Assembly (NCBI RefSeq): GCF_009931435.1
Contig: NZ_CP043414.1
DNA: 64,000 nt
Strand: one strand, 5' to 3'
DNA from: Escherichia coli
GTDB lineage: Bacteria; Pseudomonadota; Gammaproteobacteria; Enterobacterales; Enterobacteriaceae
Each line of letters begins with the position of its first letter. Position 1 is the stretch's first letter. The position numbers and the translations under genes were made by a program. Shown one piece after another: positions 2,277 through 61,189 of the stretch. The notes beneath the pieces were generated by a model that was not told the origin of the DNA, made no database searches, and worked only from the letters and a program-made list of their open reading frames with translations.

Positions 2277-2445
2277 CAAAGAAAAAGGCAGCCTGTGGTT
2301 GCCTTTTGCCAATAATTCGCACACATTGCGGGTTACTGCTTTATTTTCGTTCAGTGCTGATAACGAACATCAACCTGCAAAACGAAGCGCATAGTTTAAA
2401 ATGGCTATCATCAATACGCTATATCTGATGGAAAAAAATATGCCT
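2277..2445 (-). ncRNA. sraB: possible SraB small RNA in the yceD leader region; approximate coordinates
   Basis: From memory, SraB maps between yceF and yceD, co-oriented with yceD. No boundary can be read from sequence alone. Confidence 0.25.
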
Positions 2446-3024
2446 AAACTTATTTTAGCCTCCACCTCGCCCTGGCGTCGCGCTCTTCTGGAAAAACTGC
2501 AAATCTCTTTTGAATGTGCAGAACCCGAGGTCGACGAAACCCCACGCAGCGACGAATCACCGCGACAGTTGGTGCTTCGACTGGCACAAGAAAAAGCGCA
2601 ATCTCTGGCGTCACGTTATCCGGATCATTTAATTATTGGTTCAGACCAGGTATGTGTTCTTGATGGCGAAATCACCGGTAAACCGTTAACGGAAGAAAAT
2701 GCCCGTCTGCAATTACGCAAAGCCAGCGGCAATATCGTCACCTTCTATACTGGACTGGCGTTGTTTAATTCGGCGAATGGGCATCTGCAAACAGAAGTGG
2801 AGCCTTTTGACGTCCATTTCCGTCACCTGAGCGAGGCGGAGATTGATAATTACGTGCGTAAGGAGCATCCCCTGCACTGCGCGGGTAGCTTTAAGAGTGA
2901 AGGATTTGGCATTACGCTGTTTGAGCGTTTAGAAGGGCGTGACCATAACACGCTGGTTGGTTTACCGCTAATCGCGCTGTGTCAGATGTTACGTCGGGAA
3001 GGGAAAAATCCGCTGATGGGATAG
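2440..3024 (+). CDS. yceF: Maf-like nucleotide pyrophosphatase YceF
   Basis: Track ORF 2401-3024 trimmed to internal ATG at 2440 ([21 protein letters not shown]...), giving 194 aa. Confidence 0.9.
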
Positions 3025-4306: not shown

Positions 4307-4667
4307 GTTTCCGTGTCCATCCTTGTTAAAACAAGAAATTTTACGGAATAACCCATTTTGCCCGACCGATCATCCACGCAGCAATGGCGTAAGACGTATT
4401 GATCTTTCAGGCAGTTAGCGGGCTGCGGGTTGCAGTCCTTACCGGTAGATGGAAATATTTCTGGAGAGTAATACCCAGTCTGTTTCTTTGATAATTGCGC
4501 TGTTTTTCCGCATGAAAAACGGGCAACCGACACTCTGCGCCTCTTTGAGCTGACGATAACCGTGAGGTTGGCGACGCGACTAGACACGAGGCCATCGGTT
4601 CACACCCGGAAAGGCGTTACTTTGCCCGCAGCTTAGTCGTCAATGTAAGAATAATGAGTAAGTTACG
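4307..4667 (+). promoter_or_regulatory. long rne 5' leader (autoregulatory UTR) and promoter region
   Basis: About 570 bp of non-coding sequence precedes the rne ATG; rne is known to have a ~361-nt structured leader. Boundaries estimated, not read from sequence. Confidence 0.5.
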
Positions 4668-26372: not shown

Positions 26373-26423
26373 TTATCCTTTGTGTCCGGCAAAAACATCC
26401 CTTCAGCCGGAGCATAGAGATTA

Positions 26424-45082: not shown

Positions 45083-45837
45083 GTTGTCACCCTGGACCTG
45101 GTCGTACATTTAAGAAATTAAATCATTTCAACTTAGTTGTTAACGCAACCTGTATTTTGTTAACGCCGCGTTACGATGGAAAGTATGTCTGCGGAAATAT
45201 TTTTAATAACTCACCCGCGCGTTGTATTTTTCTTTTTTTGTTCATACCAAAGTATTAAAACCCACGTAAATACGCTGTTATCTACGCAAAAAAAATATTT
45301 TGTTTTCTTTTAAATTTCGGTTTTCCGCAATCAAAAATCACCAGACAGTCATTCTTCTTGCCCGTCGCTGATTGCTGCGATATGTCTTGCGCACAAGCCG
45401 TGACAAACCTCGTCTTTTTGCAGTAAAAAATTGTCCACGGAGGTGTGGAGAAAAAACAAGAACGTTTTACATGACGAAAGGACTACACCGAAATATTTTT
45501 TATATGCATTATTAGCAAGTTAGCACCATTTGTATGATTTTTTAAAATTGTGCAAGAAAAACCAAATGTACAACTTTTCTATCATTTCTAAACTTAATAA
45601 AACCTTAAGATTAACATTTTAATATAACAAGTTACATTTAGTTACATGTTTAACACTTGATTTAAGATTTGTAATGGCTAGATTGAAATCAGATGTAATC
45701 CATTAGTTTTATATTTTACCCATTTAGGGCTGATTTATTACTACACACAGCAGTGCAACATCTGTCAGTACTTCTGGTGCTTCTATTTTAGAGGCAGCTG
45801 TCAGGTGTGCGATCAATAAAAAAAGCGGGGTTTCATC
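45083..45837. promoter_or_regulatory. csgBAC / csgDEFG divergent control region
   Basis: 755-bp AT-rich divergent spacer; the csgD -10 candidate TAGATT at 45679-45684 places the start site about 148 nt upstream of the csgD ATG. Confidence 0.7.
45631..45656 (+). promoter_or_regulatory. OmpR-binding site of the csgD promoter
   Basis: gttacatttagttacatgtttaacac, tandem GTTACAT half-sites just upstream of the csgD -35 region. Confidence 0.6.
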
Positions 45838-48839: not shown

Positions 48840-49394
48840 TTACTCTTCAGAATCTTCTTCCAGCTCGTCCCACATTGCACTAATAGCATCGCGGGTTAGC
48901 GGTGCCATGGTGCGCCAGAAAGGCGTAGTTGCATGGGCCTCCACTTTGCCAAGGAACGCACCACACCAGGGTAACAGATACTCACTGAACAGTGTTTCCA
49001 GTGCTTCGCTCTCATCTTCCGTTGACTGATCTTCCAGCCAGGAAGCCGCGAGCAGCAATGTACCGATGTGATCGGCTGGCGTATCCGCTAATGGCATCCC
49101 TCGTTCGGAAAGAAAAGCGCGCACTTCCGCTTCCGTCGCGCCCTCAACCCATGCGCTACGATATGGCGGCACAGCACATTCATCGCCGATAAACAACGCA
49201 TTGTATTCGGCAGAGACTTGCGCCATATCACAGCTTTTCTGTAAACGTGTCAGTAACTCATCCTGCTCCAGTGGCCAGTTCGCAGCCAGTTTCCCCTCAC
49301 GAATCAGGGTAAACAGCGGCACCAGTAAAGGATCTTGCGGTTGGCGGTAATAGAGCGAACCCAGCACACGACAGAGGATAGAAAACTCGTTCAT
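48840..49394 (-). CDS. ycdY: TorD-family redox enzyme maturation chaperone YcdY
   Basis: 184-aa ORF MNEFSILCRVLGSLYYRQPQDPLLVPLFTLIREGKLAANWPLEQ... Confidence 0.92.
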   Translation of the reverse strand: MNEFSILCRVLGSLYYRQPQDPLLVPLFTLIREGKLAANWPLEQDELLTRLQKSCDMAQVSAEYNALFIGDECAVPPYRSAWVEGATEAEVRAFLSERGMPLADTPADHIGTLLLAASWLEDQSTEDESEALETLFSEYLLPWCGAFLGKVEAHATTPFWRTMAPLTRDAISAMWDELEEDSEE

Positions 49395-49417
49395 TAATAT
49401 ATTTCCATTACTAGTAA

Positions 49418-50155
49418 TTAAAGGTCTGCAAATTCCGCAATCGGTGCCATACCACGAGATTCAAGGAAGTTCAGTAAGCGGCGCGGAGAAACATTCAAAA
49501 TGCGCTCTGGCGGAAAATCTACCGCGTCGAGGATTTTAAGACACTCTTCAAATTCACCCATGGTAAACGCGGTGTGAGAATCCGAGCCTAATGCCACCCA
49601 ACCTCCAGCGTCACGTACCGCTGCGGCTACCGCACGACAGTTGTCTTCACTGCCCTTACGTGAGTGTAAAAATGAGGAATTATTGATTTCCAGCGCCACC
49701 TGATGTTTCGCAGCTGCTTCAGCAACGGCTTTAACATCTATTTCATATTTCGGATTTCCGGGATGGCTTATTATATGCACATTGCCGCTGGCGATAGTGG
49801 CGATCATCGCTTGCGTATTGGTCGCTTTGTCATGCGGCGCAAACACCGGCTCATGAAAACCGGCAATAATCAGATCCAGCGAATCAAACATTTTGCCACT
49901 GCAGTCAATTTCACCGTCAACATTTTTAATGTTAGCTTCGATCCCGCGCAGGATCCCAACCCCATCAACCACTCGCGGCCAGATACGCATGTTAATGAAG
50001 TGCCAGTGATGCGGCGCATCTTCCATATCCGGGCCATGATCGGTGATCGCAAAAAGTTTAATGCCCTTTTGTTTGGCCTGGGCAATGTAATCACTCAATG
50101 TGCTATATGCATGCGTGCTAGCAACGGTATGCATATGAAGGTCGACGGGATACAT
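49418..50155 (-). CDS. ycdX: PHP-domain zinc phosphatase YcdX
   Basis: 245-aa [56 protein letters not shown]... Confidence 0.93.
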
Positions 50156-50209
50156 AACTCTCTCCTGTATTCAATTCCCGCCAAGGATAGCAGGAAACCT
50201 GATGCTTTA

Positions 50210-51187
<978 letters not shown>

Positions 51188-51381
51188 TTATCGTTATGAT
51201 CTACAAAGGCCACCAGCATAACAAATCCGTGGTCGGTGGCAAAAAAAGCAGATTTCGCTTATTAAAACTGCATATTGATTGAAGTTTGAATAAACGCGCG
51301 ATTTTTTTAAAAAGTTTGTTGACCTCAGGTCATGATTTCCCTAAATTAGCGCCCGTTCCAGCAAGACAGGAACGACAATTT

Positions 51382-51469
51382 GGTGAGGTGTCCGAGTGGC
51401 TGAAGGAGCACGCCTGGAAAGTGTGTATACGGCAACGTATCGGGGGTTCGAATCCCCCCCTCACCGCCA
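51382..51469 (+). tRNA. serX: tRNA-Ser (anticodon GGA), CCA encoded
   Basis: ggtgaggtgtccgagtggctgaaggagcacgcctggaaagtgtgtatacggcaacgtatcgggggttcgaatccccccctcaccgcca; long variable arm, T-loop GGTTCGAATCC, anticodon GGA. Confidence 0.93.
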
Positions 51470-51931
51470 TCTTTAAAGAAGAGCTCGTACGAAAGTACGG
51501 GCTTTTTTTTCGTATATTGCACACACCGGGGGGATGAGAAGCCCCGACAGGGGTTCGACAACTGGCGACAGCCAGTTGGACAGACCGTGAACGCAGTGAG
51601 CGGGCTGCCCGCAGGGCGAGCGAAGCGAGTCAATCCCCCCCTCACCGCCATCTTTAAAGAAGAGCTCGTACGAAAGTACGGGCTTTTTTTTTGTATATTG
51701 CACACACCGGGGGGATGAGAAGCCCCGACAGGGGTTCGACAACTGGCGACAGCCAGTTGGACAGACCGTGAACGCAGTGAGCGGGCTGCCCGCAGGGCGA
51801 GCGAAGCGAGTCAATCCCCCCCTCACCGCCATCTTTAAAGAAGAGCTCGTACGAAGGTACGGGCTTTTTTTTCGTATATTGCACACACCGGGGGATGAAA
51901 AGCCCCGACCGGGGTTCGACAACTGGCGACA
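51470..51931 (+). repeat. tRNA-linked tandem direct repeat array: about 2.5 copies of a 181-bp unit, each ending with the 3'-terminal 19 nt of serX
   Basis: Copies at 51470-51650, 51651-51831 and a truncated copy at 51832-51931. Copies 1 and 2 differ by one C/T; copy 3 has about four substitutions or indels. The tRNA 3'-end motif aatccccccctcaccgcca recurs at 51451-51469, 51632-51650 and 51813-51831. Confidence 0.9.
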
Positions 51932-51934
51932 AAC

Positions 51935-53302
51935 TCAATCATCATCCTTGCAGTTGATAAGAATTTCTGCCTCTTTTACAACTATCTTATTACGTCCGGT
52001 TTCTTTCGCTTCATATAGTGCATTATCAGCCATTCGATAGATTTCATTCGGATTTAACGCACTTCCCTGAGTCACCACAGCGCCAATGCTAATCGTCACT
52101 TTTTGCGGTATGGCGTATTCAGGATTATCGCCTGTCAAACGCTCTACATTTGCCCTTATCCTTTCGGCTAAAACTTTCGCGCTTTCAGTATCGGTCTCCG
52201 TCAGCAAGACGCCAAACTCTTCGCCGCCAACGCGTGCTAAAAGGTCATTTGGTCGTATGCTTTTCCCAATGATGCTCACCACTGTTTTTATCACCTGATC
52301 GCCAACCGGATGCCCCCACGTATCGTTAACTTTTTTAAAGTGATCGATATCCATAATCATGACACAATAAGACGTTTTTTGGGCTGATGCTGATTGAGCC
52401 TTCAGTTCATTGAAAAAATAATTCCTGTTAAATATATTAGTTAATGGATCGCGATGGGCAATGTTCTTTGTTACTCGTAGCGCACTGAAAATATGGCACA
52501 TAAATATTACCATAACGGTTAATTTACTGACTACTTCAATAGTGCGGCTAATATACCAAGTGGACACACTATACCTGCTCATAAATAACAGAGAGATATT
52601 ATACAGCACGGCACAGAAAGCAATCACTGATACTCCATTCCAGATATCACAGCGTAAACCATTAAAGTATAGATTAACCAAAAGCAAGATTAACCACATG
52701 AAAATTATTATGGTAACATATGAGGTTTTCCAGACTACCTGACCATTTTCATTTGTTAACTCGGCAATATGTAAACTGTAGTCATCATAATGACTACTTA
52801 GCATGTGAGCAACTGCCGCCCCCCCATAAATAAAAAATAGGCTTATACACAATGTCATTTTTTTGGAAAAAAAACAGCGTTTCTTATTGTTTTCACTAAC
52901 TTTATTCACCAGCGCTAGCAATATTAACATGCACAAACTCATCTGACGAAACAAATAATAAATTGCAATATCATTTTGTACAACGCTGCTTATCAAATGC
53001 CCCTCAATAAATTGCTGAATGATAATGACAGTTTTAACAAAGTAAATCAAACAACTCAGAAACGCTAAACTAAGTATACAGTTTGAAAATTGCACACGAT
53101 CATAAATGAAATACAATTGCATGAAAATAAATGCAACGGTATCGATAAAAAATAAAGCAATCATAACCATTAGATAGGTTGATCGTGGAACAACCTCCTC
53201 AACGGTTGGCTGATTAAACCAACTATTTACCAAAACGAATGCAAGCCCAAACAATAAGCTCACCAATACAGTACTACTAATTCCCAAATAGTCTTTTTCC
53301 AT
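51935..53302 (-). CDS. dgcT: diguanylate cyclase DgcT (YcdT), MASE4 membrane domain plus GGDEF
   Basis: Track ORF trimmed to ATG at 53300-53302 (MEKDYLGISSTVLVSLLFGLAFVLVNSWF...), about 455 aa; GGDEF active-site variant RVGGEEFGVLL. Confidence 0.9.
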   Translation of the reverse strand: MEKDYLGISSTVLVSLLFGLAFVLVNSWFNQPTVEEVVPRSTYLMVMIALFFIDTVAFIFMQLYFIYDRVQFSNCILSLAFLSCLIYFVKTVIIIQQFIEGHLISSVVQNDIAIYYLFRQMSLCMLILLALVNKVSENNKKRCFFSKKMTLCISLFFIYGGAAVAHMLSSHYDDYSLHIAELTNENGQVVWKTSYVTIIIFMWLILLLVNLYFNGLRCDIWNGVSVIAFCAVLYNISLLFMSRYSVSTWYISRTIEVVSKLTVMVIFMCHIFSALRVTKNIAHRDPLTNIFNRNYFFNELKAQSASAQKTSYCVMIMDIDHFKKVNDTWGHPVGDQVIKTVVSIIGKSIRPNDLLARVGGEEFGVLLTETDTESAKVLAERIRANVERLTGDNPEYAIPQKVTISIGAVVTQGSALNPNEIYRMADNALYEAKETGRNKIVVKEAEILINCKDDD

Positions 53303-53649
53303 AAAGCTACACCAATCTGTAGGTTGTAGATCCCTTTCTGTCACTAATAGATATAAGAACTGTACTGTTGTCAATATAAAAATCCACCACAAACAATACC
53401 AATGATGATAGTTGCAGACCGCAATTATTATTACCTTAGTGCTTTATACATTCTTCGCGACAAGACAGGCTTGCAAATACATATAAATGGTTATAAGGAA
53501 ATCCTTATAAAACATTAATTCATAGATATATTAGGAATAACAATTGAATCCGTGAGTACAGTAACGCTGCATTTCATCAGGACTTTCGAAAAATCCGATA
53601 TCATGCATCGGAATTTACTGATTTAATTATTTTAATCCTAATTTATTTT

Positions 53650-53891
53650 GAAAAAGGCATTGGAATTTATGCCGTATTCCTGAAGTTCCTCATCATTGGA
53701 ATGGATTTTCGGGCGAGAAAAGGATTTTATATGGATACTCTACTCATCATTTCTTCTTCTCATCATCAACAATTCACGTCTCTCTTCCGCGTTTAATAAC
53801 GGATTATGATGTGCATAAAAAATATCTTTCGTTTCAGTTACCTGTAATTAGATACAGAGAGAGATTTTGGCAATACATGGAGTAATACAGG
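53650..53891 (+). promoter_or_regulatory. pgaA 5' leader with multiple GGA motifs (CsrA-type)
   Basis: GGA motifs recur in ...ttggaatggatt..aaaggatt..tatggata..cggattatg..catggagtaatacaggATG, including one in the Shine-Dalgarno. The pgaA leader is a known CsrA target; boundaries estimated. Confidence 0.5.
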
Positions 53892-56315
53892 ATGTATTCA
53901 AGTAGCAGAAAAAGGTGCCCGAAAACCAAATGGGCTTTGAAAATTCTTACTGCCGCATTTTTAGCAGCGAGTCCCGCGGCGAAGAGTGCTGTTAATAATG
54001 CCTATGATGCATTGATTATCGAAGCTCGCAAGGGAAATACTCAGCCAGCTTTGTTATGGTTTGCACAAAAATCAGCACTCAGTAATAACCAAATTGCTGA
54101 CTGGTTACAGATTGCCTTATGGGCCGGGCAAGATAAACAGGTTATTACCGTTTACAACCGCTACCGTCATCAGCAATTACCAGCGCGTGGTTATGCAGCT
54201 GTCGCCGTCGCTTATCGTAACCTGCAACAATGGCAAAACTCGCTTACACTGTGGCAAAAGGCACTCTCTCTGGAGTCGCAAAATAAGGATTATCAACGGG
54301 GACAAATTTTAACCCTGGCAGATGCGGGTCACTATGATTCTGCGCTGGTTAAACTTAAGCAGCTTAACTCTGGAGCACCGGACAAAGCTAATTTACTCGC
54401 AGAAGCCTATATCTATAAACTGGCGGGGCGGCATGAGGATGAATTACGGGCGATGACAGGGTCATTACCTGAAAATGCCTTAACGCAACAATATCCCACA
54501 GAATACGTGCAGGCATTACGGAATAATCAACTTGCTGCCGCGATTGACGATGCCAATTTAACGCCAGATATTCGCGCTGATATTCATGCCGAACTGGTCA
54601 GACTGTCGTTTATGCCTACGCGCAGTGAAAGTGAACGTTATGCCATTGCCGATCGCGCCCTCGCCCAATACGCTGCATTAGAAATTCTGTGGCATGATAA
54701 CCCTGACCGCACTGCCCAGTACCAGCGTATTCAGGTTGATCATCTTGGCGCGTTATTAACTCGCGATCGTTATAAAGACGTTATTTCTCACTATCAGCGT
54801 TTAAAAAAGACGGGGCAAATTATTCCGCCCTGGGCGCAATATTGGGTTGCGTCGGCTTATCTCAAAGAACATCAGCCAAAAAAAGCACAGTCAATAATGA
54901 CAGAGATCTTTTATCACAAGGAGACCATTGCCCCGGATTTATCCGATGAAGAACTTGCGGATCTCTTTTACAGCCACCTGGAGAGTGAAAATTATCCCGG
55001 CGCGCTAACTGTCACCCAACATACCATTAATACTTCGCCGCCTTTCCTTCGGTTAATGGGCACGCCTACGAGCATCCCGAATGATACCTGGTTACAGGGG
55101 CATTCGTTTCTCTCAACCGTAGCAAAATATAGTAATGATCTTCCTCAGGCTGAAATGACAGCCAGAGAGCTTGCTTATAACGCACCAGGAAATCAGGGAC
55201 TGCGCATTGATTACGCGAGTGTGTTACAAGCCCGCGGTTGGCCTCGTGCGGCAGAAAATGAATTAAAAAAAGCAGAAGTGATCGAGCCACGTAATATTAA
55301 TCTGGAGGTTGAACAAGCCTGGACAGCATTAACGTTACAAGAATGGCAGCAGGCAGCGGTCTTAACGCACGATGTTGTCGAACGTGAACCGCAAGATCCC
55401 GGCGTTGTACGTTTAAAACGTGCGGTTGATGTACATAATCTTGCAGAGCTTCGTATCGCTGGTTCAACAGGAATTGATGCCGAAGGTCCGGATAGTGGCA
55501 AACATGATGTCGACTTAACCACCATCGTTTATTCACCACCGCTGAATGATAACTGGCGCGGTTTTGCTGGATTCGGTTATGCCGATGGACAATTTAGCGA
55601 AGGAAAAGGGATTATTCGCGACTGGCTTGCGGGTGTTGAGTGGCGGTCACGTAATATCTGGCTTGAGGCGGAGTACACCGAACGCTTTTTCAATCATGAG
55701 CATAAACCCGGCGCGCGCCTGTCTGGCTGGTATGATTTTAATGATAACTGGCGTATTGGTTCGCAACTGGAACGCCTCTCTCACCGCGTTCCATTACGGG
55801 CAATGAAAAATGGTGTTACAGGCAACAGTGCACAGGCTTATGTTCGCTGGTATCAAAATGAGCGGCGTAAGTACGGTGTCTCTTGGGCTTTCACTGATTT
55901 TTCTGACAGTAATCAGCGTCATGAAGTCTCACTTGAGGGTCAGGAACGCATCTGGTCTTCACCATATTTGATTGTCGATTTCCTCCCCAATCTGTATTAC
56001 GAACAAAATACAGAACACGACACCCCATACTACAACCCTATAAAAATGTTCGATATTGTTCCGGCATTTGAGGCAAGTCATTTGTTATGGCGAAGCTATG
56101 AAAATAGCTGGGAGCAAATCTTCAGCGCAGGTGTTGGTGCCTCCTGGCAAAAACATTATGGCACGGATGTCGTCACCCAACTCGGCTACGGGCAACGCAT
56201 TAGCTGGAATGACGTGATTGATGCTGGCGCAACGCTACGCTGGGAAAAACGACCTTATGACGGTGACAGAGAACACAACTTATACGTTGAATTCGATATG
56301 ACATTCAGATTTTAA
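53892..56315 (+). CDS. pgaA: poly-beta-1,6-N-acetylglucosamine outer-membrane export porin PgaA
   Basis: 807-aa ORF MYSSSRKRCPKTKWALKILTAAFLAASPAAKSAVNNAYDALIIEARKGN... (TPR region plus C-terminal beta-barrel). Confidence 0.96.
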   Translation: MYSSSRKRCPKTKWALKILTAAFLAASPAAKSAVNNAYDALIIEARKGNTQPALLWFAQKSALSNNQIADWLQIALWAGQDKQVITVYNRYRHQQLPARGYAAVAVAYRNLQQWQNSLTLWQKALSLESQNKDYQRGQILTLADAGHYDSALVKLKQLNSGAPDKANLLAEAYIYKLAGRHEDELRAMTGSLPENALTQQYPTEYVQALRNNQLAAAIDDANLTPDIRADIHAELVRLSFMPTRSESERYAIADRALAQYAALEILWHDNPDRTAQYQRIQVDHLGALLTRDRYKDVISHYQRLKKTGQIIPPWAQYWVASAYLKEHQPKKAQSIMTEIFYHKETIAPDLSDEELADLFYSHLESENYPGALTVTQHTINTSPPFLRLMGTPTSIPNDTWLQGHSFLSTVAKYSNDLPQAEMTARELAYNAPGNQGLRIDYASVLQARGWPRAAENELKKAEVIEPRNINLEVEQAWTALTLQEWQQAAVLTHDVVEREPQDPGVVRLKRAVDVHNLAELRIAGSTGIDAEGPDSGKHDVDLTTIVYSPPLNDNWRGFAGFGYADGQFSEGKGIIRDWLAGVEWRSRNIWLEAEYTERFFNHEHKPGARLSGWYDFNDNWRIGSQLERLSHRVPLRAMKNGVTGNSAQAYVRWYQNERRKYGVSWAFTDFSDSNQRHEVSLEGQERIWSSPYLIVDFLPNLYYEQNTEHDTPYYNPIKMFDIVPAFEASHLLWRSYENSWEQIFSAGVGASWQKHYGTDVVTQLGYGQRISWNDVIDAGATLRWEKRPYDGDREHNLYVEFDMTFRF

Positions 56316-60124: not shown

Positions 60125-61189
60125 TTAACTGTATGCATGTAGCGTACGTTGGCAAAGTGCCGAACGTACGCAATCCTCTTTACCGAATCGGACGATCCCG
60201 ACCATTTCATCTTCTTCGAAACGTTCCAGCGCGTCACTTAATCCGGAGCGCACGCCGCGAGGCAAATCGCATTGCGTGATATCACCGTTGACGATAACCG
60301 TCACGTTCTCCCCGAGGCGGGTTAAAAACATTTTCATTTGCGCGGCAGTCACATTCTGCGCCTCGTCAAGAATGACGACTGCATTTTCAAAGGTACGTCC
60401 ACGCATATAGGCGAACGGCGCGATTTCCACCTTCCCTATTTCCGGTCGCAGGCAGTACTGCATAAAGGAAGCCCCTAAGCGCCGGACCAGCACGTCGTAG
60501 ACCGGACGAAAATAGGGAGCAAACTTTTCTGCGATATCTCCAGGTAAGAAGCCAAGATCTTCATCGGCTTGCAGAACTGGACGGGTGACGATAATCCTGT
60601 CGACATCCTTATGTATCAGGGCCTCTGCCGCTTTTGCTGCGCTGATCCAGGTTTTTCCGCACCCGGCTTCGCCGGTGGCGAATATCAGCTGCTTACTCTC
60701 AATAGCCTTCAGATAGTGCAATTGCGCTTCATTTCGCGCGAGGATGGGCGAGGTATCGCGACTGTCGCGGGCCATACCAATGGCTTCTACGCCGCTCATC
60801 TGCACAAGCGAGGTGACCGATTCTTCTTCACGCTGCTTATGGCTGCGCGAATCCCGTCTCAGCACACGTTTTGCCTCGCGACGAGCTTTGATCACTGCTT
60901 TTTGTCTTCCCATGGAGAGCACCTTGAGTTGTTTGTATTCATCACACGCGCCGTTGGCAGCGCGATTATGCGCACGAACATCAGAGGGTTGGCTTCCTTG
61001 TAAGCCATAGTTTGCTTTTGGATAAAATGCCGAAAAACGGCTACGCGCACCGTTTACGGCGTCGGTAACACATGAAAAGAAAGGTTGAGGTTGAAAATGC
61101 AAAGTGACGAGATGACTACCGGAGGAGAAATCTCCGCGAGTGGTGGAGCGTTGCTTAACAAAACATTGTCCAGTACAGGACGTTACCAT
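60125..61189 (-). CDS. phoH: phosphate starvation-inducible ATPase PhoH
   Basis: 354-aa ORF MVTSCTGQCFVKQRSTTRGDFSSGSHLVTLHFQ...; Walker A GEAGCGKT in the C-terminal domain. Confidence 0.93.
   Translation of the reverse strand: MVTSCTGQCFVKQRSTTRGDFSSGSHLVTLHFQPQPFFSCVTDAVNGARSRFSAFYPKANYGLQGSQPSDVRAHNRAANGACDEYKQLKVLSMGRQKAVIKARREAKRVLRRDSRSHKQREEESVTSLVQMSGVEAIGMARDSRDTSPILARNEAQLHYLKAIESKQLIFATGEAGCGKTWISAAKAAEALIHKDVDRIIVTRPVLQADEDLGFLPGDIAEKFAPYFRPVYDVLVRRLGASFMQYCLRPEIGKVEIAPFAYMRGRTFENAVVILDEAQNVTAAQMKMFLTRLGENVTVIVNGDITQCDLPRGVRSGLSDALERFEEDEMVGIVRFGKEDCVRSALCQRTLHAYS

Follow-up and report, generated by a model that had tools for sequence, protein, structure and literature searches.

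The locus behind the tRNA gene serX raises the question of whether an 18-codon reading frame, repeated in a tandem array, encodes a tiny peptide or is an accident of a structured RNA. The window, a 64,000-nucleotide stretch of Escherichia coli DNA (contig NZ_CP043414.1), contains serX between ghrA and dgcT, and the final 19 nt of the tRNA form the beginning of the array. Each 181-bp unit combines a copy of the serX terminator with an RNA module (RtT) of ~137 nt, whose own last 19 nt copy the tRNA 3' end (end of the T-loop, 3' strands of the T-stem and acceptor stem, G, and CCA). The features, with positions in the window, are as follows.

51319..51347, + strand: candidate sigma-70-like promoter upstream of serX, TTGACC-17-TAAATT, by consensus match only
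51382..51469, + strand: tRNA-Ser(GGA) gene serX (ARAGORN; Rfam tRNA 53.8 bits; K-12 synteny)
51451..51931, no strand assigned: 181-bp tandem repeat, 2.7 copies, 98% identical (TRF)
51475..51510, + strand: intrinsic terminator hairpin with U8, directly 3' of the tRNA CCA and present in each unit (fold)
51514..51650, + strand: RtT RNA unit 1 (RF00391)
51534..51590, + strand: micro-ORF copy 1, 18 codons and stop, judged non-coding
51632..51650, + strand: 19-nt copy of the serX 3' end, 19/19 nt identical to 51451-51469
51656..51691, + strand: terminator hairpin, copy 2 (terminator scan)
51695..51831, + strand: RtT RNA unit 2
51715..51771, + strand: micro-ORF copy 2, identical to copy 1
51837..51872, + strand: terminator hairpin, copy 3, with one loop substitution (in register with the other copies; minus-strand match)
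51876..51931, + strand: truncated RtT unit 3, 5' 56 nt only, ending at a deletion junction with the 3' end of dgcT
51895..51957 including the stop, + strand: variant ORF of the truncated unit, 20 codons and stop
51935..53392, - strand: dgcT, GGDEF diguanylate cyclase, longest ORF, converging on the array (RefSeq label; dgcT of K-12)

We conclude that the micro-ORF is almost certainly not a gene. Our preferred reading, to which we assign a probability of roughly 0.85, is that it is an accidental frame inside RtT RNA elements, and that a function, if there is one, is exerted by the RNA and not by a peptide.

The frame itself exists as described in an earlier, sequence-only reading of this DNA. 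Both positions given for the full copies were confirmed, as was the sequence, ATG AGA AGC CCC GAC AGG GGT TCG ACA ACT GGC GAC AGC CAG TTG GAC AGA CCG TGA, which translates to MRSPDRGSTTGDSQLDRP*. For the truncated unit that reading had placed a variant frame at 51895-51956; the frame (MKSPDRGSTTGDKLNHHPCS*) and its start were recovered, but its end was off by one and lies at 51957. The variant does run antisense over the dgcT stop codon (51935-51937), as had been noted. It exists only because of the deletion junction, which is found in 41/5426 complete E. coli genomes, and its exact peptide was not found in a collection of 15 billion proteins. The 20-, 26- and 40-aa variants of the peptide were likewise not found in that collection, in which only tpr was present.

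A frame of this length is not beyond chance expectation. At the composition of the unit, a given ATG is followed by 17 or more sense codons with a probability of 0.54, and when the 181-bp unit was shuffled 2000 times with its dinucleotides preserved, 1105 of the shuffles (55%) had an ATG-initiated ORF of 18 codons or more on the same strand. Other ORFs crossing the array are longer, up to 149 aa on the minus strand. The frame had been called conserved, but its agreement between the two full copies carries no weight because these are near-identical tandem duplicates.

The repeat units are RtT RNA elements, members of an already known family that includes rttR/tpr of the tyrT operon. Both full units match the RF00391 covariance model end to end (1-130 of 130) with 41.7 bits and an E-value of 4e-6, and unit 1 starts 45 nt past the serX CCA on the same strand. 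The curated Rfam gathering score for this family is 45, and the units of this strain, 3.3 bits lower, are missed at the "gathering" threshold. K-12 serX units, which differ by one base, score 46.3 and exceed it; the tyrT units score 133–137 bits. One loop substitution, placing the units 3 bits under the Rfam cut-off, is therefore the reason why the serX RtT units of this strain escape standard annotation. In other strains the serX repeats carry the RefSeq label "RtT sRNA", including units that are 99.3% identical. Two other identities were considered for the region. ARAGORN on positions 49000-54000 gave serX only, and no match to an Rfam tmRNA was obtained. A hammerhead and a K-turn or loop-E motif were each tried for the UGAGAA core and rejected, as key positions misfit by eye; there was no match to an Rfam ribozyme.

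Membership in RtT turns the proposed analogy with tpr of tyrT into a true homology, since the micro-ORF AUG is the homologous AUG of tpr and lies inside the conserved RUGAGAA core. The tyrT element (rttR/rtT; Bosl & Kersten 1991) likewise sits 3' of a tRNA as tandem units with a tRNA 3'-end copy including CCA, and it shares with the serX units the closing helix and the core motifs RUGAGAA, GGUUCGA, and CCCGNAGGGYGA. Because the host tRNA of serX is Ser(GGA) and not Tyr, all tRNA-matched segments differ between the two. P3 and P4 of the serX units (see below) are longer and of different sequence, and each serX unit has an intrinsic terminator, whereas the 178-bp tyrT units have none.

The reading frame is not conserved among paralogous and orthologous copies. 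In K-12 the ORFs of the four tyrT copies measure 29, 5, 5, and 9 aa (one starts with GTG), so that the 29-aa tpr frame is kept in 1/4 copies. The E. coli serW paralogues carry a 1-nt deletion in the P3 loop that leads to unrelated ORFs of 40–81 aa, and indels of 1–2 nt occur in these paralogues and in most other species. Within serX, one copy is frameshifted and one has GTG. Among 30 distinct Ser-type units, 21 have indels in the ORF columns that are not multiples of three; variable columns number 11/12/8 by codon position, without an excess at the third; and the encoded peptides are alike over only ~10 N-terminal residues. Across 150 unique family members, the ORF in frame 0 ranges from 4 to more than 95 codons with a median of 31, as compared with 34 in a control frame. 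The substitution pattern between copies thus ignores the frame, with frameshifts, premature stops, and stop loss, and the suggestion that a tiny peptide is made from the tRNA transcript did not hold.

An ATG or GTG stands at the homologous position in 146/150 family members. Base pairing accounts for this retention, as the A pairs with a U, or in GTG variants the G pairs with the first C of the T-stem. The same retention would also fit a start codon. The E. coli/E. albertii serX lineage keeps the frame mostly intact, and its few differences are synonymous (AGG/CGG, GGT/GGG) or conservative; the divergence there is too low for the intact frame to serve as a test. The variable sites within this lineage fall in hairpin loops.

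As an RNA, unit 1 folds with a minimum free energy (MFE) of -60.2 kcal/mol (z -3.4). The helices of this unit are listed below.

51528..51535, + strand: 5' strand of P1, the G-run with the A and U of the AUG (MFE)
51538..51556, + strand: P2 hairpin, GAA-N-CCCC / GGGG-UUC (alignment fold); its 3' strand with UUCGA is a copy of the 5' half of the tRNA T-arm
51559..51578, + strand: P3 hairpin, CAACUGGC-GACA-GCCAGUUG, spanning ORF codons 9-15; the frame-shifting 1-nt indels of relatives sit in its loop
51582..51606, + strand: P4 helix, whose 5' strand includes ORF codons 17-18 and the stop codon's first base
51607..51617, + strand: GCCC-GNA-GGGC hairpin with the conserved CCCGNAGGG motif (alignment and fold)
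51633-51640, + strand: 3' strand of P1, within the 19-nt tRNA 3'-end copy

The fold is conserved with covariation. In an alignment of the 30 distinct Ser-type units (A2), tested against 500 shuffles and slid controls, 95.3% of the cells were paired, as compared with 32–55% in the slid controls. Compensatory changes occurred at 12 pairs versus 5.7 in the shuffles, and the observed values were reached in 0/500. P1 was 93% paired with 4 compensatory pairs and P3 97% paired, while P4 showed compensatory changes in 6/6 pairs. The A of the AUG was paired in 30/30 units (AU 22, GU 6, GC 2) and the U in 30/30 (pairs 13-114 and 14-113). P1 was also present in the separately predicted minimum-energy folds of 62/68 diverse RtT members. 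The MFE pairing of the 3' half of the window's own unit was discarded, as its helices 4-6 were paired in only 73–91% of the cells of the Ser-type units; the hand-derived P4, GNA hairpin, and mini-hairpin fit this half far better. When the family-wide alignment (A1) was folded with RNAalifold, P2 and the GNA hairpin were the only helices recovered, since MAFFT aligns poorly both the variable helices and the register of P1 (A versus G variants). The sequence-only reading had held a structural RNA role to be at least as likely as a peptide, and the MFE, the per-sequence folds, and the covariation bear out this alternative, leaving the peptide unsupported.

The RtT module is best described as a multi-helix RNA in which P1 joins the 5' G-run and the AU of the "start codon" to the tRNA-derived C-run, enclosing hairpins P2, P3, and P4 and the GNA-loop hairpin. 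The AUG belongs to the RUGAGAA core, and the "codons" are helix strands and loops.

A translated frame could still coexist with this fold, if RtT of the serX lineage were a dual-function RNA that also yields the 18-aa peptide as a young, lineage-specific counterpart of Tpr. The AUG is shared with the annotated tpr; nearly every E. coli serX unit examined has an intact frame, as does one Kosakonia locus (L053), and in E. albertii the frame is lengthened to 21 aa; and the G-run could serve as a weak element of Shine-Dalgarno type. That G-run, however, abuts the AUG with a spacing of zero, and together with the AU of the AUG it is sequestered in an 8-bp G-C-rich helix, P1, which confirms the ribosome-binding context as poor, as had been noted. 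A terminator precedes every unit, third-position bias is absent, and the frame does not survive in most other genera or in the serW paralogues that share a genome with these serX units. The unit is moreover missing from 1671 of the 5426 complete E. coli genomes (31%) and so is dispensable; where it is present, the copy number ranges from 1 to 12.

The peptide also differs from its supposed counterpart. BLASTP aligned only residues 1-9 with Tpr, with no similarity beyond; these are 7/9 identical (MRSPDRGST in serX and MRSFDQGST in tpr, b1229, "protamine-like protein") and are encoded by the RNA-constrained core. The changes F to P and Q to R from tpr to serX are compensatory changes in a stem (CUU..AAG to CCCC..GGGG), in step with the T-stem of the host tRNA. 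The serX peptide has 18 aa, with 3 Arg and 3 Asp and a net charge of ~0, versus 29 aa with 9 Arg and a net charge of ~+6 for Tpr (PRTL_ECOLI); by residue count, the arginine-rich "protamine-like" composition is absent from it. The accessible parts of the supplements of Stringer 2021 and "Cryptic Bacterial Microproteome" list neither the serX peptides, nor the K-12 serX ORF coordinates, nor tpr among translated small ORFs; this silence is weak evidence because standard pipelines discard reads from identical repeats. Taken together, we regard a dual-function RNA as highly improbable.

The preferred reading, a structured RNA with an accidental frame, is further supported by the distribution of the family. 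A same-strand tRNA lies within 1.5 kb upstream of 162/179 RtT elements; of the remaining 17, 15 are no more than about 200 nt from where the available sequence begins, and an island separates the other 2 from serW. In 113/157 elements the terminal sequence is an exact 16-nt copy of the upstream tRNA's 3' end. Across Gammaproteobacteria, no fewer than 12 tRNA species (isoacceptors) are followed by RtT elements, and RtT-like units also occur in Stenotrophomonas and Pseudoxanthomonas.

Because the 3' end of a tRNA, copied at the end of each unit, is the usual integrase target, the units could instead be pure DNA relics: scars or duplicated attachment sites of elements integrating at tRNA-Ser 3' ends, amplified by unequal crossing-over and without an RNA function. 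serX and serW are island integration sites, and in one genome (L126) an integrase-bearing island lies between serW and its RtT units. The copy number is highly variable, and a raised mobilome signal has been reported over the tyrT/rttR region under stress (10.1101/2024.07.17.603846). Attachment-site repeats of islands likewise place a tRNA 3'-end copy of 16–19 nt downstream of an intact tRNA. In RtT, unlike in such repeats, the copy lies inside a structured module with a co-varying 5' strand, and the units form a regular tandem with no island between them. The crossover of the L126 island is in the tRNA end itself, outside the RtT units. A relic would also not explain the compensatory covariation in P1, P3, and P4, the G-U pairs in the tRNA-sense strand of the Ser-type units, or the conservation of the core over Gammaproteobacteria. 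P1 is kept over 12 tRNA identities by matched changes in its 5' strand, which is not contiguous in any tRNA gene. In addition, experiments in other species, A. pleuropneumoniae and K. pneumoniae, have detected RtT RNAs (PMC4986893; PMC4147364). We thus consider the DNA-relic explanation very unlikely.

Another possibility is that the elements act only in cis, the terminator and RtT block insulating serX from the convergent dgcT (or ycdU) and protecting or guiding the maturation of the tRNA 3' end, with no trans-acting RNA. Rfam types RtT as "Cis-reg", and the array lies between convergent genes. Every Ser-type unit has a hairpin with an A-tract and a U-tract that is terminator-like on both strands; here, the A-tract 5' of the hairpin makes the terminator potentially bidirectional. 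RtT copies are also found between tRNA genes of one operon, in the tyrT-tyrV spacer. One terminator would be enough for insulation, however, and the multi-helix core is far too elaborate for this purpose. The Tyr-type units keep the same core without an intrinsic terminator, and the many E. coli that lack the units seem unharmed. A purely cis-acting role is therefore unlikely.

For the RNA favored here, the units would be transcribed by read-through of the serX terminator; no promoter within the unit was found by a consensus scan of the array. The machinery that processes tRNA 3' ends may then trim each unit at its tRNA-like CCA terminus, as accounts of rtT of tyrT describe. A strong RNA 3' end lies 4 nt past the CCA of the RtT copy in the K-12 tyrT-tyrV spacer, and no 3' ends are listed near serX, in the supplement of PMC7815308. 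Given the strong intrinsic terminator before each unit, the serX RtT RNA may be low-level. The array would grow and shrink via unequal recombination between units. Any function would be exerted by the RNA and not by the peptide, and the accessible literature links the rtT RNA of tyrT to the amino-acid starvation response.

Small RNAs can arise from the spacers and trailers of tRNA precursors, an example in E. coli being 3'ETS-leuZ. RNAs of this type and RtT would share excision from a tRNA primary transcript by tRNA-processing enzymes. The former is a short unstructured base-pairing sponge, whereas RtT, which is not known to have a target, is large, has a conserved fold of several helices that ends like a tRNA at its 3' side, and occurs at many tRNA loci.

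Four segments of RtT, namely the 5' strand of P1, both strands of P2, and the 3' tail, track the T-stem of the host tRNA in all the tRNA contexts encountered (Ser, Tyr, Lys, Pro, Arg, Glu, and Gln). The RNA might therefore switch from the P1+P2 fold to a true T-arm with an insert of ~75 nt, and back. On a wider reading that we put forward as a long shot, RtT units would go beyond processing by-products and be tRNA-matched mimics of the acceptor and T-arm, with, as a small part of this reading, the AUG also used in the serX lineage as in a dual-function RNA. If so, RtT in the T-arm state could serve as a sensor of, or a decoy for, factors recognizing the T-arm, acceptor, or CCA end, candidates being processing nucleases, the CCA-adding enzyme, T-loop modification enzymes, and RelA on the ribosome. 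The re-tailoring of several segments to each host T-stem may aid in finding the function of this long-known RNA.

The main value of the analysis is a negative result, which blocks a spurious small-protein annotation. By extension, with its frame in 1/4 K-12 tyrT units, the legacy call of tpr as a "protamine-like protein" is also questioned. tpr of tyrT is still listed as a protein in the K-12 annotation and UniProt.

Two minor observations were also made. The true start of dgcT is probably internal to the longest ORF. The Xanthomonas sRNA family sX4 (RF02223) matched weakly over a stretch comprising tRNA-Ser, the terminator, and the beginning of the RtT unit (GGGGGGAUGAGA), with 32.6 bits here and 34 in K-12, far under the family cut-off of 70; this match probably reflects a shared tRNA and the start of an RtT-like element.

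The micro-ORF lies in a tandem repeat downstream of a tRNA-Ser(GGA) gene, whose neighbours ghrA and dgcT (both on the minus strand) identify the serX position of E. coli. The features of the locus are as follows.

Features of the serX locus (window coordinates).
51382-51469: tRNA-Ser(GGA) gene (ARAGORN and Rfam)
51451-51931: tandem repeat, 181-bp unit, 2.7 copies, 98% identity; the first copy starts with the last 19 nt of the tRNA
51514-51650 and 51695-51831: RtT units (Rfam RF00391, permissive scan)
51528-51556 and 51632-51650: host-matched segments of the first RtT unit
51534-51590 and 51715-51771: micro-ORF, MRSPDRGSTTGDSQLDRP*, in the two full units
51895-51957: variant ORF, MKSPDRGSTTGDKLNHHPCS*, in the third, truncated unit
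51935-51937, minus strand: dgcT stop codon

Both full-unit micro-ORFs were found where the sequence-only reading had placed them. The third ORF was also present, with the proposed start at 51895 and the proposed antisense overlap with the dgcT stop codon, and only its end had been set one base short of the true position (51957). The truncated RtT unit adjoins the 3' end of dgcT, 3 nt beyond the stop codon, and this deletion junction (51931/51932) is found in just 41 of the 5426 complete genomes of E. coli; at the matching place in K-12, IS3D, ymdE, and ycdU separate dgcT from the array. The variant ORF is a product of the junction.

The length of the micro-ORF is no more than chance gives. At the composition of the unit (59% G+C), the probability of at least 17 sense codons after a given ATG is 0.54, and 1105 of 2000 dinucleotide-preserving shuffles had an ATG ORF of 18 or more codons on the same strand. 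Other frames of the array contain longer ORFs. A minus-strand ORF of 149 aa (51473-51922) traverses the entire array in antisense, and further long ORFs have 94 and 119 aa. All three are artefacts of a stop-poor, G+C-rich repeat, in which ORF length means little. The micro-ORF recurs across the repeats because the tandem duplicates are near-identical, and its supposed conservation in each repeat carries nothing beyond that.

In a permissive Rfam scan, both full units matched the tRNA-linked RNA family RtT (RF00391) across the whole model (41.7 bits, E = 4e-6). The curated cut-off is 45 bits, and the units were missed by the gathering-threshold scan of the window because they lie 3.3 bits below it. 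K-12 serX is followed by three RtT units, two of which score 46.3 bits and are identical to the window units except for one hairpin-loop base (GACC in K-12, GACA in the window). This single base lowers the score from 46.3 to 41.7 bits, so that standard annotation misses the window units. A genomic hit 100% identical to the window unit (H31) has no annotated feature, hits with 99.3% identity carry the label “RtT sRNA”, and RefSeq applies this label to the same post-serX repeats in many strains. The 178-bp repeats in the tyrT operon, the site of annotated rttR and tpr, served to define the family (Rfam/K-12 annotation). The serX array is a member of this known RNA family, already named by public annotation at the same locus. 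A weak match to the Xanthomonas sRNA sX4 (RF02223; 32.6 bits against a cut-off of 70) covers the tRNA-Ser and the terminator and reaches into the first part of the RtT unit (51371-51539). The sX4 family may overlap an RtT-like element, since RtT-like units occur in Stenotrophomonas (L094) and Pseudoxanthomonas (L033).

The AUG of the micro-ORF is that of tpr, the ORF annotated as a “protamine-like protein” in the K-12 tyrT operon; both lie inside the conserved GGAUGAGAA motif, and seven of the first nine residues of the serX peptide and Tpr are identical. The analogy drawn with tyrT and tpr is thus one of homology at the shared AUG and core, but it does not extend to a Tpr-like peptide, as the frames are broken among relatives. 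The check on frame conservation, set beforehand as a refutation of the peptide, found abundant frameshifts and stops in related copies. The four RtT copies of K-12 tyrT contain ORFs of 29 (tpr), 5, 5, and 9 aa, one with a GTG start. The paralogous units at E. coli serW, 92–93% identical to those of serX, have a 1-nt deletion in a hairpin loop that shifts the frame past codon 11 into unrelated ORFs of 40–81 aa running through the tRNA-like end and terminator. GTG replaces ATG in one serW unit, and one serX unit of strain PSJ-22 is frameshifted.

A pattern scan of one genome per species, with TGAGAA and GGTTCGA fixed but any first base allowed in the “start codon” and no constraint on the rest of the ORF interior, gave at least 120 loci. 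In 150 unique elements among the matches listed, the frame-0 ORF ranged from 4 to more than 95 codons with a median of 31, compared with 34 in the control frame. The Ser-type “peptides” have only MR(S/T)PDRGSTTG in common and then continue in several registers. When 30 distinct Ser(GGA)-type units were aligned, the net indel length within the ORF columns was not divisible by three in 21 of them, and the variable columns are distributed 11/12/8 over codon positions 1/2/3, i.e., without a third-position excess. The only two N-terminal differences from Tpr within the shared nine residues, F to P and Q to R, are paired changes in a hairpin stem (CUU..AAG to CCCC..GGGG), and the serX peptide, with 3 Arg and 3 Asp, is not basic, whereas Tpr has 9 Arg in 29 residues. 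The only annotated protein is tpr, within a cluster of 9 E. coli entries, and the 20-, 26-, and 40-aa serX/serW ORF variants were absent from a collection of 15 billion proteins. The Tpr-like peptide reading fails on three of four testable membership features, and the broken frames, lack of third-position excess, and non-basic composition speak against it. Most serX units of E. coli do retain an unbroken frame, as a lineage-specific translated peptide would have it, and we give that explanation hardly any weight. The micro-ORF is without coding constraint, and we regard it as a non-coding frame within the RtT RNA element with a probability of roughly 0.85.

The structural RNA role that the sequence-only reading had held at least as likely is supported. 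The minimum free energy of the unit is −60.2 kcal/mol (z = −3.4), which no shuffle equals. In the predicted fold, the tRNA-derived C-run is the partner of the G-run and of the A and U of the AUG. Together these strands make up the closing helix P1, inside which lie the P2 and P3 hairpins and the 3' domain; the terminator hairpin is separate when the preceding spacer is included. The poor ribosome-binding context noted earlier was borne out, as the G-run abuts the AUG and belongs to P1. In the refined structure, counted on 30 Ser-type units, 95.3% of the cells have standard pairs (32–55% with partners slid), 12 pairs show compensatory changes (5.7 in shuffles, none of 500 reaching 12), and 38 cells are changed on both sides (9.3 in shuffles). 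All six pairs of P4, whose 5' strand contains the last two codons of the ORF and the first base of its stop codon, covary. Both the A (AU 22, GU 6, GC 2) and the U of the AUG are paired in 30 of 30 units. Pairing in P1 explains why a purine precedes UGAGAA in 146 of 150 family members among the matches listed; a start codon need not be invoked. The core GAA pairs with the UUC of GGUUCGA, and P1 is present in the minimum-energy fold of 62 of 68 diverse representatives among the matches listed. P3 is a hairpin whose sequence is very different by lineage (e.g., CAACUGGC.., CAAAACGG.., CUGAAUCG.., CUCUUGCG..).

Among the matches listed, 162 of 179 elements have a same-strand tRNA within 1.5 kb upstream; 15 of the remaining 17 lie within ~200 nt of the sequence start, and two are split from serW by an integrated island. 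The hosts in these matches are mostly Ser(GGA) (63), Tyr (47), Pro (20), and Lys (16), followed by Arg (7), other Ser (7), Glu (1), and Gln (1), and the taxa beyond Enterobacterales are Marinobacterium, Idiomarina/Aliidiomarina, Kangiella, Thioalkalivibrio, Stenotrophomonas, and Pseudoxanthomonas. A metagenome-assembled genome labelled Candidatus Auribacterota, a bin assigned outside Proteobacteria, has an RtT-like unit after tRNA-Ser(GCU) (L113), which may reflect a binning error or a genuinely wider distribution. An exact 16-nt copy of the host tRNA 3' terminus (T-stem 3' strand, acceptor 3' strand, discriminator, and CCA) was found in 113 of 157 elements among the matches listed. The P1 5' strand varies with the host, keeping its pairing to this copy, and so reads like acceptor positions 5–7 plus the T-stem 5' strand. 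The P2 3' strand and UUCGA copy the 5' half of the host T-arm (2.08 of 3 free positions match, versus 0.87 in controls). Across the family (L004–L123), the host T-stem is tracked by four segments (3' tail, P1 5' strand, and the two strands of P2), and P3 is free to vary. It is very improbable that the units are purely a DNA relic left by integrase activity, which is at odds with the covariation and with a 5' strand that could come from no tRNA gene. The four host-matched segments are mutually complementary, so an alternative fold, with a hairpin G1:C1 and a T-arm G2:C2 carrying a ~75-nt insert in its T-loop, is possible in every tRNA context. One could read the units as mimics of the acceptor/T-arm, matched to their host, that have two alternative folds and act on factors binding tRNA; this seems to us distinctly doubtful.

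The units are RtT modules that combine a conserved, covarying fold with a tRNA-like 3' terminus. A consensus scan found no internal promoter in the units, and the serX array would be transcribed by read-through of the serX terminator. In every Ser-type unit, a hairpin accompanied by an A-tract and a U8 tract has terminator-like scores on both strands. That the array acts mainly in cis, as a terminator or processing element, is an unlikely account, though one that overlaps with a non-coding RtT RNA and is inseparable from it here. The RtT RNA may be excised and trimmed to CCA by tRNA-maturing enzymes. Such processing fits the release of rtT from the tyrT transcript, as told in citing literature (PMC4986893), and a strong RNA 3' end at 1287359 (minus strand), 4 nt beyond the CCA of the RtT in the K-12 tyrT-tyrV spacer (PMC7815308). 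This spacer between two tRNA-Tyr genes (L001, the K-12 tyrT locus, 1864-1995) is a full RtT unit (132.9 bits). RtT RNA expression is detectable in A. pleuropneumoniae (PMC4986893) and K. pneumoniae (PMC4147364). The tyrT rtT has been linked, according to the same citing literature, to the amino-acid limitation and stringent responses (PMC4986893); we hold any specific trans function far less firmly than the non-coding reading.

Of 5426 complete E. coli genomes, 3755 carry the unit, at 1–12 places per genome. The serX array is dispensable and variable; units may be gained and lost through unequal recombination. serW, located between infA and clpA, has its own paralogous RtT units (L126 1-1213; L127, L128, L129). 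In strain 4069 (L126), an island with a tyrosine integrase separates serW from these units, and its crossover lies within the 3' end of the tRNA (...GGTCCCCCTCACCGCCA). The gathering-threshold Rfam scan of the window (1-64000) gave the rne 5' UTR element (4307-4643), SraB (2278-2446, minus strand), ES056 (45691-45782), the PyrC leader (26374-26423), and a Ysr251 match (60130-60323), a set that fits the E. coli rne-to-pgaA region. At another serW locus, the RtT units are separated from clpA by three CRISPR-DR4 repeats (L127 1316-1463, minus strand), and the RefSeq “hypothetical protein” WP_012602745.1 that overlaps these repeats is probably a spurious call.
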